From a virus, in the IMG/VR virus record IMGVR_UViG_3300050132_000084, positions 1 to 64,000 of that record: 64,000 nt of DNA, one strand, 5' to 3'. Below the pieces are notes generated by a model, which saw nothing but the letters and a program-made list of their open reading frames with translations, was not told the DNA's origin and did not search any database. The position numbers were made by a program, and so were the translations under genes. Positions 28,259 to 32,123 of the stretch are shown here, piece after piece; within the stretch, counting starts at the first letter, position 1, and the number at the start of each line of letters is the position of its first letter.

Positions 28259-29065
28259 ATGAAAACATTTAAACAATTCCGTGAAAGGGTGATACCAGTT
28301 TCCATGATAGATCACGGATACGAAAGACAAATACCATTTGATATATGTGAACATGGTGACGAAAGACAAATACCATTTGATATATGCGAACATGGTGACG
28401 ACAGACACCTAATGGTGGAAGGTTTGATATCAAAATGGGCAAACACATCAGGTTCTCCAATAGATGAAACACACCCAGATTTACAAAAACAGCACCATGA
28501 TAATTTCACTCATGATGATAAAGATTCTATCGGAAGATATGTTATGGGTGGGCTATATGCGCATCAAGGTACAGGAAGTGCACCATTAAATAAACACCTG
28601 ATAAAATCACATGAAGATAACCATGAATCACCATCCAGTTTTACTATACGGGGGGAACATGGTAGGTCTGATGTTCATTATGATCTTGATAAATTAGACG
28701 AAGCAACAAACAGGAATAAATTAAAAGAACCACTTACCACTTATAGTGGTTTTAAACATAATCCATCACCAAAAACATCCGATGGAGTTACGTATTTTCC
28801 CGCATACACATCAAGCTCGCCTAATAAACATATAGCATTAAAATATGCACACCCCGTAGATGGAATCAGACATATAATGAAAATTGATCATGGTGTTGGG
28901 CATACTGGTGCTTATATAGGAAATAATCAAAATATCACACCATTTTATGATGACGAATTTATCATGCCAAGAAATACACATTTAAAAATAAATCCCGTAC
29001 CAGAAGAACACGAGAACTCTCATGGAGAAAAATTCCATGTCTGGTCGGCAAAGAGATTAACATAA
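28259..29065 (+). CDS. CTS-tagged Alt-like ADP-ribosyltransferase (paralogue 1)
   Basis: Leader MKTFKQFRE; YFPAYTSSSP (STS-like) and DDEFIMPRNTHLKI against T4 Alt NYVSTSLSP and ECEVILPRGTMLKI. First motif is TTYSGF rather than YRG. The track start at 28223 is a TTG upstream of the conserved RBS+ATG. Confidence 0.65.
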   Translation: MKTFKQFRERVIPVSMIDHGYERQIPFDICEHGDERQIPFDICEHGDDRHLMVEGLISKWANTSGSPIDETHPDLQKQHHDNFTHDDKDSIGRYVMGGLYAHQGTGSAPLNKHLIKSHEDNHESPSSFTIRGEHGRSDVHYDLDKLDEATNRNKLKEPLTTYSGFKHNPSPKTSDGVTYFPAYTSSSPNKHIALKYAHPVDGIRHIMKIDHGVGHTGAYIGNNQNITPFYDDEFIMPRNTHLKINPVPEEHENSHGEKFHVWSAKRLT

Positions 29066-29075
29066 AGGACAACGA

Positions 29076-29603
29076 ATGACCACACAATTAATATCATTTG
29101 TAGGATTAAAACCAACTGGATTTTCGTTGGGTATATCACGATATCCTGATACAACATTTCCAATTCAAACTGTTATACTACCATCAGTGTCCATGGGTTC
29201 TGCAATCCAGAATACACCACAGATGACGATTAAACACCCCGGCGAAAAAGCTACCTATGCACCACTATCATTGACCTTCTTGTTGAATTCTGATATGTCA
29301 AACTATATTAGCTTGCTTGGATGGATGAAACAAAATGCTGCACCACAAGGCCCAAGTGATATAGCCACACTCCAACAAATGTTGGCACAGAATACCACTA
29401 ATGATAATGGACAAGAGTATTTTAGTGATATAACTTTGGGATTGCTTGATAACAACAATAACCCAACAGTTGGGTTTAAATTTGTTGATGCTTTTCCAAC
29501 ATCATTAAGTGCTATCACAATGACAACTACAGCAAGTGGAATGGAATATTTGACATGTGATGCAGTATTCGATTACACTAATTTTGAAGTTGTATCACAG
29601 TGA
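29076..29603 (+). CDS. g3: Tail-tube-fold protein, probable T4 gp3 homologue (tail tube terminator/sheath stabiliser)
   Basis: gp19-family-like pattern F.LGISRYPDT.F.IQTV.LPSVSMG...PGEK.TY.PLSLTFLL..DM.NY. Sits in the g23-g3-uvsY position seen in marine T4-like phages. Confidence 0.55.
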   Translation: MTTQLISFVGLKPTGFSLGISRYPDTTFPIQTVILPSVSMGSAIQNTPQMTIKHPGEKATYAPLSLTFLLNSDMSNYISLLGWMKQNAAPQGPSDIATLQQMLAQNTTNDNGQEYFSDITLGLLDNNNNPTVGFKFVDAFPTSLSAITMTTTASGMEYLTCDAVFDYTNFEVVSQ

Positions 29604-29618
29604 CATTTGTGGTATAAT
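29590..29618 (+). promoter_or_regulatory. Early promoter (TTGTAT-N17-TATAAT, TGTGGTATAATG box)
   Basis: tgtggtataatg at 29608-29619; ttgtat at 29590-29595. Confidence 0.6.
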
Positions 29619-29665
29619 GGTGAGTGTATTGTGCTGTATCATAGCACGTTTATTATGAGGAAATA

Positions 29666-30109
29666 ATGGCTACATTGGTAGAAATATTGGATGAATGGGA
29701 TAAGGATTCATCCATAAATGAAGCGGAACTTGGACATGAGGCCACACGTAATCCAATGATTCATGCAAAGTACGTCAGGATGATTTCACAGACGAAATTA
29801 TCTTTACGTAAGGCTGAGTCAGATTATTTGACGGTACGTAAGACCAAATGGCGGTACTATCGTGGTGAAATGGGTAAAGCTGAATTAGATGAATTAGGAT
29901 GGAATCAATATCAAGGTAGGATTCCAACCAAAAGTGATATGGATGAATTCTTGAATTGTGATCCAGATTTGATTCGATATACAGATAAAATTCAATATTT
30001 TACTGTTGTCAAAGAAACACTAGATTCAATCCTCAAAGAGTTGAATTCACGTACATGGAATATTAAAACTGCGGTGGACTACGCAAAAATGATGAATGGG
30101 ATAAACTAA
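29666..30109 (+). CDS. uvsY: Recombination mediator UvsY
   Basis: Size and pattern L..E....P....KY......K..L...E.....V....YY.GE...ELD parallel T4 UvsY; synteny next to uvsW. Confidence 0.8.
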   Translation: MATLVEILDEWDKDSSINEAELGHEATRNPMIHAKYVRMISQTKLSLRKAESDYLTVRKTKWRYYRGEMGKAELDELGWNQYQGRIPTKSDMDEFLNCDPDLIRYTDKIQYFTVVKETLDSILKELNSRTWNIKTAVDYAKMMNGIN

Positions 30110-30110
30110 A

Positions 30111-30368
30111 ATGGATATTATACAACACCCCGCATGTACAGAAACATTATGCGCACCATCGGATATGCAAGATGGAAGCTGTGATAGCCTTCCTGTGGCA
30201 GTTACAGAAGATGAACATGGATATTGGTCGGTTTCATTTTGGAAGCCAACACAGGATGATCTAGACGTTCTGAATGATGGTGGTACTATTGCATTATGGG
30301 TACGTGCAAAAGGTAGGCAGCATCCTGTCGTTGGATTGGGTGTGGACTCATGGAAAGAAGAACAATGA
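30111..30368 (+). CDS. Hypothetical small protein (higher GC than its surroundings)
   Basis: 85-aa ORF. A decayed copy of its last ~10 codons plus the RBS lies upstream of 28259. Confidence 0.55.
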   Translation: MDIIQHPACTETLCAPSDMQDGSCDSLPVAVTEDEHGYWSVSFWKPTQDDLDVLNDGGTIALWVRAKGRQHPVVGLGVDSWKEEQ

Positions 30369-31018
30369 AAACATTTAAACAATTCGTATTTGAAATGGCA
30401 ACACCATCAGATGCTATAAAGAGTAAAACATATTACCATGGGACATCAAGTCGTGCCGCTGCATTGGGAATTGCTGAACATGGTATATTACCACCAGAAG
30501 CACCAAAGAAATCGGGGGATTTAACTCCTGTAGCAGGAAAAGTATATATTACACCACACATCCATTATGCACAAATTTATTCTTTGGGTGGTGATATTGC
30601 AGGTTCGAATTGTAAAATGTCACACCATCAACATGAGGATTATGGGTATGTATTTTCTGTTCATGGTAGCAAGTTGAAAGATGTACAACCAGATGAAGAT
30701 TCTGTTGGAGAAATGGTAAATAATGGAAGTCCAATATGGCTACAACATATGGCTAGGAATCATCTACACCCAACAACATTTAAAAAAATTAAAGACGGTG
30801 AATATTCCAAATTTGCCAGTGGTGGTAAACAACTTGTTAGAAAAATGACAGATACACAGAAATCAGACATCATCAATGCCGGTGCACATGTGGCACACAC
30901 AGGATCACTAAAACCAGATTCTGTTTATAGAATACATAAAGATAAAATACCATTGTTAAAACGAGATGGATCAAATTTCTTTGATCATGCAGAAAAAATT
31001 GACATAAAGGACATATAA
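30365..31018 (+). CDS. CTS-tagged protein with YHGT motif (possible H-Y-E-class ADP-ribosyltransferase/Tpt1-like fold)
   Basis: Leader MKTFKQFVFE, then TYYHGTSSRAAALGIAEHGILPP and GKVYITPHIHYAQIY, resembling the H and Y motifs of PARP/Tpt1-type ARTs. Weak assignment. Confidence 0.4.
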   Translation: MKTFKQFVFEMATPSDAIKSKTYYHGTSSRAAALGIAEHGILPPEAPKKSGDLTPVAGKVYITPHIHYAQIYSLGGDIAGSNCKMSHHQHEDYGYVFSVHGSKLKDVQPDEDSVGEMVNNGSPIWLQHMARNHLHPTTFKKIKDGEYSKFASGGKQLVRKMTDTQKSDIINAGAHVAHTGSLKPDSVYRIHKDKIPLLKRDGSNFFDHAEKIDIKDI

Positions 31019-31902
31019 TGAAAACATTTAATCAATTACGAGAAGCCGTTGGTGAACCAGATGTAGTCCAAGGTGCAATCGTTAATGGTGTTCCTACAGC
31101 ATTGGTTCAGCATGGTTCACATGCCTTTAAGGATCAACCAGATGAACCCCTAGAGCAAGGTGCAATGGTAGATGGTGTACCATGTGCAGTCGTATTCCAT
31201 GGTAGCCACAGTGTTCCAAAGACTAGGAAACTTGGTGAAAAATTTAGTGTTGATCATTCCACAGTGAAACATTGTTATTTTGATGAAAATGATAATACCC
31301 ATATTCATCCTGATATCCATCAAGTTGGTAAACTGTTACAACATACCCAAAAGCGCGAAGGGTTAGACAGTCACCACCTGAATCAATATTGTTCTGGTAG
31401 TCGTTGCTTGAATAAGGCTTTGTATGATGCCCACAAGAATGGTAAAGATACACCAAAGTCCGTGACTGGTTTCGGAGTGGAACACAATGTCCGTAGGCTA
31501 GATGATGCTATCCACAGGAACAAATTACACAAGGATGTCCACCTGTATAGTGGTGTTGGCTTTGAACCGTCTAAGCTGGCATCTAATCATCCTGAAGGAC
31601 ATATTTACTTACCTGCTTACACTTCAACCAGTATTAATAAAAGTGTCGCACGGAACTTTGCCTCAAATCAGGGTGAGAATAAGCCAACACAATTAAGACA
31701 AAATGGTGTGATGGGACATGTGCTTCATATTCATGCTAAAGCTGGACAACCGGCAGCATATGTTGATCGTGAATCAACATATAAACACGAGAATGAAGTA
31801 TTATTGCCACGTGGAACAACATTGAAGATACATGGACATAGTGAACATGAAGACGAATTTGGCGATGTTTATAGGGTACACCATAGTACAATAGTAAAAT
31901 GA
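31018..31902 (+). CDS. CTS-tagged Alt-like ADP-ribosyltransferase (paralogue 2)
   Basis: Leader MKTFNQLRE; YLPAYTSTSINK (STS) and HENEVLLPRGTTLKI (E-x-E) match T4 Alt. First motif is HLYSGVG instead of YRG. Confidence 0.7.
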   Translation: MKTFNQLREAVGEPDVVQGAIVNGVPTALVQHGSHAFKDQPDEPLEQGAMVDGVPCAVVFHGSHSVPKTRKLGEKFSVDHSTVKHCYFDENDNTHIHPDIHQVGKLLQHTQKREGLDSHHLNQYCSGSRCLNKALYDAHKNGKDTPKSVTGFGVEHNVRRLDDAIHRNKLHKDVHLYSGVGFEPSKLASNHPEGHIYLPAYTSTSINKSVARNFASNQGENKPTQLRQNGVMGHVLHIHAKAGQPAAYVDRESTYKHENEVLLPRGTTLKIHGHSEHEDEFGDVYRVHHSTIVK

Positions 31903-32123
31903 TAACATTCAAACAATTTGTTGGTGAATCGTATTCTGATGTCACGAACAATGGAAATTATATACCAAACCCAAATGGAAGAAAAGAAATGATTTGTAAT
32001 TTAAGAAAATTCTGTAGGGATAATATAGAATACCGCCTAAATTACAAATCATTATCGAGAGTAGCAAATAATAAACAATCACACCATAGGGGATTCACTT
32101 GCAAATTGGTAAATAATCTTTGA
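31899..32123 (+). CDS. CTS-tagged small basic protein (internal-protein-like)
   Basis: Leader MITFKQFVGE; 74 aa, Lys/Arg/Asn-rich; ATGA-coupled to the upstream ART gene. Confidence 0.55.
   Translation: MITFKQFVGESYSDVTNNGNYIPNPNGRKEMICNLRKFCRDNIEYRLNYKSLSRVANNKQSHHRGFTCKLVNNL

Follow-up and report, generated by a model that had tools for sequence, protein, structure and literature searches.

The window analysed here is a stretch of 64,000 nucleotides of viral DNA (positions 1 to 64,000 of the IMG/VR record IMGVR_UViG_3300050132_000084), in which six genes on the plus strand encode proteins that share a short N-terminal peptide, referred to below as the leader, with the consensus M[K/I]TF..[F/L]..E. 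An initial annotation of the sequence had proposed that the leader is a T4-type capsid-targeting sequence (CTS) fused to unrelated effector proteins, and all six open reading frames (ORFs) were found at the coordinates that it gave. The first gene encodes an ADP-ribosyltransferase (ART), ART1 (28259-29065, 268 aa), which begins with the leader MKTFKQFRE and has a predicted cut after Glu9. Further along are the genes of the YHGT protein (30365-31018, 217 aa), whose leader MKTFKQFVFE runs into the cargo's own methionine (MATP...), of a second ART, ART2 (31018-31902, 294 aa; leader MKTFNQLRE, predicted cut after Glu9), and of a 74-aa protein (31899-32123; leader MITFKQFVGE). The other two genes encode a 62-aa protein (60239-60427), whose leader MKTFEQFKKYIAE has a terminal I-A-E as in T4, and a nucleotidyltransferase of 242 aa (60429-61157; leader MKTFSKFYEE). 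The genes of the cluster have stop/start overlaps at 31018 and 31899. A mechanical ORF list starts the ART1 gene earlier (TTG at 28223) and also the YHGT gene (ATG at 30350); family alignments put the conserved starts at 28259 and 30365.

The leader is conserved as DNA as well as peptide, as had been noted in the initial annotation. The 20-mer ATGAAAACATTTAAACAATT was found six times in the window with at most three mismatches versus 0.12 occurrences expected from dinucleotide-preserving shuffles, and none of 100 shuffles gave six. There is synonymous TTT/TTC variation among these copies. In a greedy gene call of the window (approximately 95 genes), no other real gene started with M[KI]TF, and the remaining matches were spurious ORFs of 8-68 aa. 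Because none of the other approximately 90 genes, those of replication and recombination included, bears the leader, there was no sign within the window that such a start is equally common on non-packaged proteins. The leader was disordered or of low confidence in both of the AlphaFold2 (AF2) models obtained, with a predicted local distance difference test score (pLDDT) below 50 for residues 1-9 of the YHGT protein and of 54 for the first block of the nucleotidyltransferase. A secretion signal was considered and rejected, as the leader is polar, too short and without a hydrophobic core.

The window leaders align residue for residue with the CTS of T4, MKTYQEFIAE, which is removed by a single cleavage adjoining the tag, and this alignment supported the T4-type assignment. 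Amber-suppressor mutagenesis of T4 IPIII attributed targeting mainly to residues 4 and 7 and processing to residues 8 and 10, and the motif of the T4 prohead protease is L/I-x-E (PMC9026906). Phe4 is present in all six window leaders and Phe7 in five of them, with Leu7 in the sixth, and all six have a Glu at position 9, 10 or 13. Marine leaders have an aromatic residue at position 4, Phe at 7, frequently a hydrophobic residue at 8 and Glu at 9 or 10, with positions 5, 6 and 9 being variable.

A T4-like head module is present in the same window and comprises the portal, three small genes, an S77 protease, a gp22-type scaffold and a gp23-type capsid protein. The gp21 homologue that had been reported at 21520 was confirmed as a gp21-type prohead serine protease (21520-22173, plus strand; Peptidase_S77, E = 1.8e-41; phrog_207, E = 2e-66) and is the predicted processing enzyme. 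The three small genes lie between the portal and the protease (20340-21510, plus strand; 173, 79 and 132 aa), where prohead-core genes would be expected. A family match was obtained for the 173-aa product alone (phrog_1064, "prohead"); it and the 79-aa product have N-terminal L-x-E motifs (MSSLLE↓YTIE and ...TDLLE↓GHAE, respectively, with the arrow here and below marking the junction after Glu). The gp22-type scaffolding protein (22245-23597, plus strand; phrog_237, E = 1e-60) contains 16 [LIV]-x-E sites and is the presumed docking partner of the leader. In the gp23-type major capsid protein (23640-24965, plus strand; phrog_138, E = 3e-150), EMLFE53↓NGTGD aligns with the T4 gp23 cleavage site SFLTE65↓AEIGGD, and the mature T4 gp23 chain in the Protein Data Bank (PDB) has 456 residues (521-65). 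The alignment of these sites indicated that the cleavage logic of L-x-E followed by a small residue is conserved in the phage.

The T4 late promoter-like motif ATAAATA was depleted on the plus strand of the window, with 15 copies found and approximately 25 expected. One copy (28167-28173, plus strand) lies 92 nt upstream of ART1 and is weak evidence. Others are at 18052, upstream of the gp19 (tail tube) gene, at 20311, upstream of the first small gene after the portal, and at 59973, inside a DUF7207 gene and 266 nt upstream of 60239. The motif is absent directly before the cluster at 30365, and a scan of the window for sigma-70 promoters was at chance (28 found versus 27.8 expected).

The exact 20-mer was also identified in at least 119 T4-like viral contigs of IMG/VR, and many of the leader-bearing contigs have T4-type core genes (terminase, sheath, gp41, gp43 and primase). 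Among the matches listed, nearly every one is the start of an ORF that continues into unrelated sequence of 9-424 aa. In 81 of 88 dereplicated leaders (92%) there is a Glu at position 9 or 10, compared to a background Glu frequency of 6%; these positions are outside the searched 20-mer and hence were unselected. The residue after the predicted cut is mostly Ala, Ser or Gly in these 88 leaders, and the most frequent residues at P3 are F (37), I (16) and L (16). The string MKTFKQF was not found in the literature searched.

One domain encountered among the metagenomic contigs, PRIPRKxGQPAxSxKHSDLYTDENPKGTIHGLGF, occurs there as a stand-alone, leader-bearing protein of 106 aa (L034 and L074). Without the leader it forms the N-terminus of a large protein of S-SM2 (S-SM2 91376-93927) in gene cluster T4-GC119, which is annotated as a cyanophage structural protein in another record. 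The gene upstream of the T4-GC119 gene in S-SM2, gene 108, begins MKTLKQFLKE.

Published virion proteomes of cultured relatives connect such leaders to the particle. For S-CREM2, the proteome of CsCl-purified virions comprises 52 of the 221 proteins (PMC10665884, Table 3). All ATG, GTG and TTG starts of the S-CREM2 genome, on either strand, were searched with the pattern MK.[FY]..[FL].{1,2}E, which had been derived a priori, only from the leaders of T4, the window and the metagenomic contigs. It was present at three sites, and all three belong to virion-detected enzymes (hypergeometric p = 0.012), namely an S-adenosylmethionine (SAM) hydrolase (ORF6, MKDFDSFLEE), an APH-like kinase (ORF14, VKRFDAFLTE) and a cytidylyltransferase (ORF154, MKNFSSFLTE). 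A looser pattern added two virion-detected hypothetical proteins, ORF13 (MKDLHSFLTE) and ORF136 (MQTFSMFFSE), so that five of five were virion-detected with no match elsewhere in the genome (p = 6e-4). The S-CREM2 authors class the proteins with the leader pattern as "non-structural" virion proteins, mention no shared N-terminus, and state that kinases and cytidylyltransferases recur in cyanophage virions (PMC10665884). Homologues of the window nucleotidyltransferase are found in freshwater and estuarine cyanophages, including S-CREM2 ORF156, which is in the virion proteome with six peptides.

Detection of the cytidylyltransferase, the product of a cyanophage core gene (T4-GC190), extends to the virions of S-SM1 (Sullivan 2010) and to those of S-SZBM1, in which it was the only enzyme seen; for S-SCSM2R, other non-structural proteins are listed in the virion proteome. 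In six phages, homologues of this cytidylyltransferase have a leader of the MKxFxx[F/I] type: Syn9 (MKKFSAFLSE), P-SSM2 (MKSFSQFLTE), S-CREM2 (MKNFSSFLTE), S-B68 (MKNFNSFLTE), S-CRM01 (MKLFNQFFKE) and the Methylophilales phage Melnitz (MKKFSEIIE).

Turning to the cargo, both of the proposed ARTs had matches to PF03496 (ART1, E = 1.6e-5, 24.8 bits; ART2, E = 8e-16, 58.3 bits; cutoff 23.4 bits). ART2 also matched phrog_802, "Alt-like RNA polymerase ADP-ribosyltransferase" (E = 1e-11), with its residues 119-280 aligned only to positions 423-590 of the 674-position profile, and its PDB sequence matches were C. perfringens BEC-a and C3-like toxins (C3larvin). The two ARTs are paralogues (28% identity, E = 8e-21), and the leader is present on 18 of 18 members of their family, which were found through the cargo domain. 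ART2 has the motifs S-T-S and E-N-E, and ART1 has S-S-S and D-D-E. At the position of the canonical arginine (about 28730 and 31540) there is [Y/F]-S-G in 16 of the 18 family members and F-T-G and Y-H-G in the other two; BEC-a has Y-R-R at this position, and the norm for R-S-E ARTs is Y-R-G, the arginine being the NAD-binding residue. The linker of ART1 (28320-28407) consists of a 39-nt tandem repeat (2.3 copies, 95% identical) that encodes ERQIPFDICEHGD, and in ART2 (31018-31250) and its family one or two copies of GVPxAVxxHGxHS lie between the leader and the catalytic domain. A tblastn search of cultured phages with ART2 gave one marginal match, to a Streptococcus prophage, and no ART of a T4-like phage, which indicated that no cultured phage carries the ART2 cargo.

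An ADP-ribosylglycohydrolase gene (32095-33171, minus strand; PF03747, E = 8e-30) faces the ART cluster in convergent orientation, overlapping the 74-aa gene at that gene's 3' end. The glycohydrolase has a Cys-rich N-terminal extension and no leader. The pairing of an ART on the plus strand with a glycohydrolase on the minus strand is kept in a relative, contig L154, whose capsid protein is 90% identical (glycohydrolase at L154 11363-12274). The glycohydrolase is likely a functional partner of the ARTs, and the conserved pairing suggests that it serves in reversal or self-protection as the partner of the predicted packaged ARTs.

The YHGT protein has 187 homologues at E <= 0.001, with the family consensus MKxFxxFxxE↓MAxP and invariant residues that include H25, Y61, Y72 and E111, and it had no Pfam family match. 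Its AF2 model has a pLDDT of 92.5. The best folds in the PDB were EcPltA, pertussis toxin S1, Arr and diphtheria-toxin-like proteins, all weak (E = 0.02-1, TM-score 0.34-0.44), and fold matches in a viral library were mostly uncharacterised proteins. We regard a divergent ART fold as likely for the YHGT protein. At least four unrelated cargo types had been proposed, and the ARTs, the nucleotidyltransferase and the small basic proteins stand as separate types, with the YHGT protein possibly being a remote ART; the count is thus three or four.

The nucleotidyltransferase cargo was borne out as Pol-beta-type (PF01909, 23.9 bits versus a cutoff of 21; phrog_36119, E = 2e-55). In its G-S...D-x-D motif, G64, S75, D76 and D78 are invariant and S65 nearly so (36 sequences). 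The AF2 model (pLDDT 90.4) has a two-domain fold with generic CD-NTase- and aminoglycoside-NTase-like matches at low TM-score, and the PADLOC defence models gave only a weak match to the nucleotidyltransferase core. Searches of PDB sequences returned nothing useful for either this protein or the YHGT protein.

The two small proteins are basic, as predicted, with a pI of 9.8 after the predicted cut and masses of 7.5 kDa (74-aa protein) and 4.9 kDa (62-aa protein), and this size and charge are within the range reported for the small basic internal proteins of T4 (PMC9026906). The mature part of the 62-aa protein is Gly-rich with a basic tail. Similar leader proteins of 58-62 aa were found in 19 viral contigs behind homologues of the DUF7207 gene, which in the window is upstream of 60239. 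The 74-aa protein had no Pfam match and a weak match to a segment of an HNH endonuclease family (phrog_2081, E = 1.6e-4). That it might be a fragment of the neighbouring homing endonucleases was rejected, as it has no similarity to either.

The modular layout of tag and effector that had been envisaged was evident in both directions, with the same leader on unrelated cargo and other leaders on the same cargo. Of 120 members of the YHGT family, 54 bear the MKxFxxF leader, and in about six the protein opens at MAxP with no leader at all. Most of the others have different short leaders, such as MKLANLFE↓MAVP, MRWEEISE↓MAAP and MINTLPQSLIE...E↓MATP, and many end in x-E↓MAxP. This variation indicated that the tag is an add-on placed before the cargo's own initiator methionine, at a junction that keeps x-E↓M-A. 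The nucleotidyltransferase family has the same alternation of leaders, and MKLYELTFE is among the alternative leaders on the cargo families. On contig L155, which has T4-type genes, two adjacent unrelated genes (9508-10663) both have a "MKL..L.E" leader.

Comparison of the locus across relatives, which had been suggested as a check for cassette turnover, revealed that close relatives hold different cassettes. In 19 relatives the order gp23, gp3, UvsY and UvsW is kept and every insert gene of the window is missing, and no leader genes were found in the stretches around UvsY from 19 IMG/VR loci. As these UvsY-anchored relatives are without the insert genes, the leader cluster is an insertion, located between UvsY and UvsW, with a second insertion between gp23 and gp3; it is not homologous to the T4 internal-protein locus. 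The order in the relative L154 is gp23, a GIY-YIG endonuclease (minus strand), gp3, UvsY, a 69-aa gene, an 84-aa gene and a leader-ART, followed by a block of minus-strand genes that ends in the ADP-ribosylglycohydrolase, and then UvsW. L154 has no YHGT gene, no ART1 and no 74-aa gene.

In the window, the leader cluster is preceded by an 85-aa gene (30111-30368, plus strand; phrog_34105) that is 70% identical to L154 7747-8001, and in L154 this homologue lies immediately next to the ART. Just upstream of the ART1 leader, 41 nt (28218-28258, plus strand) are a remnant of the 85-aa gene's 3' end. Positions 28218-28279 align with 30323-30385, the upstream homology reaching 41 nt (28218-28258 versus 30323-30364); in all other leader pairs the shared stretch extends only from about -1 to +20. 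The remnant points to duplication of a unit formed by the 3' end of the 85-aa gene, the leader and the ART, and subsequent insertion of cassettes at the leader joint.

Also in this region, two large paralogous homing-endonuclease-like genes (25040-26611 and 26685-28166) lie between gp23 and the gp3-like gene. They match phrog_3339 and have weak Mom-like and Vsr/PD-(D/E)xK-like segments. In relatives their site is either empty or occupied by a GIY-YIG endonuclease on the opposite strand.

Where sequence, comparative or published data allowed the initial interpretation to be checked, its parts turned out as it had predicted. From these data we consider it probable that the shared N-terminal peptide M-K-T-F-x-x-F-(x)-x-E is a T4-type CTS and that the six proteins are packaged into the head and delivered with the DNA. 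The mechanism that we infer covers docking to the core, the position of cleavage, retention in the head, injection, the biochemical targets and a role in anti-defence or take-over. The six proteins would be made late in infection with a short, unstructured tag, which would dock them onto the scaffolding core of gp22-type and small core proteins during prohead assembly. The gp21-type S77 protease would then cut after the Glu in [L/I/V/F]-x-E, removing the tag after Glu9, Glu10 or Glu13, and would also degrade the scaffold. The mature cargo, predicted to comprise two R-S-E-class ARTs, a probable third ART-fold enzyme, a Pol-beta-type nucleotidyltransferase and two basic proteins of 5-8 kDa, would remain in the head with the DNA and enter the next host cell alongside it. 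Cargo that enters in this way would act before any phage gene expression, and most plausibly it would serve take-over or counter-defence by modifying proteins or nucleic acids of the host. The conservation of the leader as DNA would provide a recombination joint for the gain and loss of cassettes.

Several observations weigh against this interpretation. At P3 of the predicted cut, four of the six window leaders have V, L, V and I and the other two have F and Y/F, compared to L/I in the T4 motif, and the support for late transcription is one ATAAATA motif, upstream of ART1. Both ARTs have Y-S-G without the canonical arginine, so that catalytic activity is not assured. One IMG/VR leader match heads what by eye is a putative HK97-type capsid protein, which means that the 20-mer alone is not fully specific to such cargo. 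The virion evidence comes from relatives with somewhat different leaders (MK[DNR]F.[SA]FL.E), and the proteome test rests on one phage with a leader that is related, not identical, to MKTFKQF. The looser pattern was written post hoc, with the virion list already seen, so that only the three of three were a priori. The virion-detected ORF156 starts MKKLISELKL, which is not a canonical leader; either proteins can also enter the particle without the leader, or the motif is less strict than the patterns used here. The S-CREM2 authors were also unable to exclude CsCl carry-over of abundant proteins (PMC10665884).

The possibility of contamination after CsCl purification that those authors raise (PMC10665884) is part of an alternative that we regard as unlikely, that the leader brings proteins to the particle but not as stable, injected effectors. 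They might be degraded assembly factors, be situated at another virion site, or be late proteins that co-purify. Most T4 core proteins are cleaved to fragments and leave the head (PMC9026906), and the S-CREM2 leader proteins had low to moderate peptide counts (1-21 unique peptides). However, the cargo proteins are folded enzymes (PF03496 and PF01909, with high-confidence globular AF2 models) and not coiled-coil, scaffold-like proteins, and contamination would not pick exactly the proteins with a leader N-terminus. The cytidylyltransferase recurs in three independent virion proteomes (S-CREM2, S-SM1 and S-SZBM1) and its sequenced homologues are leader-bearing. In addition, foreign proteins tagged with the T4 CTS are retained and delivered into cells (PMC9026906). 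It is with this alternative that most of the remaining uncertainty lies.

We think it improbable that the start is selected as nucleic acid, whether as an A/T-rich initiation region, for translational coupling or as a recombination or homing joint, with the peptide having no targeting role. Such selection would be in keeping with the near-identity of the leader DNA in the window, the exact 20-mer in so many contigs, the overlapping stops and starts at 31018 and 31899 and in many metagenomic examples, and the additional 41 nt shared upstream by one pair, which indicate a joint used in recombination. Yet the peptide pattern is kept where the DNA differs, as in S-CREM2 (MKDFDSFLEE, VKRFDAFLTE and MKNFSSFLTE), Syn9 (MKKFSAFLSE) and T4 (MKTYQEFIAE), the window leaders vary synonymously between TTT and TTC, and the Glu at position 9 or 10 is 92% conserved despite being outside the searched 20-mer. 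A nucleic-acid signal alone would also not predict the detection in virions of exactly the leader-bearing proteins, and a role in recombination is compatible with a targeting peptide and already part of that explanation. Least credible of all is that the shared start is a residue of common descent among six diverged paralogues. ART1 and ART2 are true paralogues and the YHGT protein may have a remote ART fold, but the nucleotidyltransferase and the two small proteins share only residues 1-10 with the ARTs, the cargo families include members with other leaders or none, and elsewhere the leader heads dozens of unrelated families, including, by eye, a DEDD-type exonuclease and a P-loop kinase.

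The phage from which the window derives is an uncultured marine T4-like myovirus, and the proteins of the window map to a JGI metagenome contig of 150,145 bp. The GC content is 36.6% across the window, and the capsid protein has at most 58% identity to that of any cultured phage, with the top matches being Kyanoviridae cyanophages and pelagiphages. A megablast search of the locus against 50,697 phage records identified no nucleotide-level relative. Replication and recombination genes identified in the window by homology are those of a polymerase, UvsX, a gp41-type helicase, a primase and UvsW. Large ORFs of the structural module contain long tandem repeats that stay in frame (1-301, 743-1037 and 8347-9016), with periods of 120-123 nt and 60/120 nt and as many as 10 copies. 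Three tRNA genes (Pro-TGG, Thr-TGT and His-GTG; 48450-48629 and 49674-49748) lie amid small early-type ORFs. A 15-nt unit is repeated 8.3 times (97% identical) within a small ORF at 57342-57575, and a 536-aa Thr/Gly/Ser-rich protein (57804-59414) with 177-nt internal repeats is probably a fibre or decoration protein.

With confidence only slightly better than even, we propose that the leader is a lineage-specific, swappable "address code" for the injected proteome of ocean T4-like phages, that is, the Kyanoviridae and their relatives. If this is correct, sequence alone would identify dozens of cargo families, among them ARTs, nucleotidyltransferases, kinases, SAM hydrolase, an NMNAT-like cytidylyltransferase and nucleases, and would provide a simple rule for predicting what abundant ocean phages inject. 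A type A leader (MKTFKQF.E) would be swapped for a type B leader (MKL.ELFE) on the same cargo families in other T4-like lineages, and a single recombination at the leader would turn any gene into one for an injected effector. The cyanophage cytidylyltransferase, kinases and SAM hydrolase would be genuinely packaged and not contaminants, which would settle a long-standing ambiguity. The injected ARTs of the window would be balanced by the phage-encoded ADP-ribosylglycohydrolase, and the pair is open to testing as an instance of a phage that keeps its own toxin-like effector in check. The two atypical ARTs, the probable third ART-like enzyme and the nucleotidyltransferase are nominated as candidates for take-over or anti-defence functions, and the leaders suggest portable tags for loading proteins into the capsids of non-coli T4-like phages.

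A review from the Black laboratory considered that the CTS is perhaps a general loading route for varied proteins in T4-like phages (PMC9026906). In the literature searched there appears to be no description of a T4-type tag conserved in a marine, Kyanoviridae-like branch, of its presence on several enzyme classes in tandem, overlapping arrays, of its coincidence with the puzzling "non-structural" cyanophage virion proteins, or of leader types that swap between lineages on the same cargo.

Head-internal cargo that is loaded during prohead assembly and delivered with the DNA is known from the ejection proteins of giant phages (SPN3US and phiKZ-like phages) and from the Dar proteins of P1. In SPN3US, head proteins are reportedly processed by a related prohead protease. 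These phages belong to lineages other than that of the window and are compared here by description only. Closer to the window are the "non-structural" virion proteins of cyanophages (cytidylyltransferase, kinases and SAM hydrolase), which share with it the broad lineage and the N-terminal pattern, and the nucleotidyltransferase family is common to both. Unlike those cultured cyanophages, the window carries ART and YHGT cargo, and the cyanophage proteome papers name no common leader for the "non-structural" proteins and leave contamination open.

The window ARTs resemble T4 Alt in having an R-S-E-class ART domain and in their predicted fate, which is packaging into the head, trimming by the prohead protease and injection. 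Alt is approximately 680 aa, whereas the window ARTs are 268 and 294 aa and their similarity to it is limited to the catalytic domain, so they do not qualify as Alt orthologues. The window ARTs also use a leader of the internal-protein type, in contrast to Alt, which has its own 7-residue propeptide together with C-terminal processing (PMC9026906). Further differences from Alt are the replacement of the canonical arginine (Y-S-G) and the pairing with an ADP-ribosylglycohydrolase. T4 is not known to have an ADP-ribosylglycohydrolase gene.

The CTS of T4 is textbook biology and a tool of vaccine engineering, and it has been tied to the T-even coliphages. In the window, a tag with the critical residues of the T4 CTS is found on enzymes from a distant marine branch of the T4 superfamily. 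As predicted from sequence, the leader of the window differs from the T4 CTS in that the Glu is often at position 9 and not 10 and that P3 can be Phe or Tyr. The cargo is mostly enzymes (ARTs and a nucleotidyltransferase), unlike the small DNA-associated inhibitors among the T4 internal proteins, and the loci are also different, being the gap between gp23 and gp3, the gap between UvsY and UvsW, and a site beside the primase gene. With the T4 internal proteins and their CTS the window shares a ten-residue N-terminal tag of the same layout, M-K-T-aromatic-x-x-F-x-x-E, its presence on unrelated and fast-changing cargo that includes small basic proteins, the conservation of the leader at the DNA level, and a gp21/S77 protease and a gp22 scaffold encoded in the same genome.

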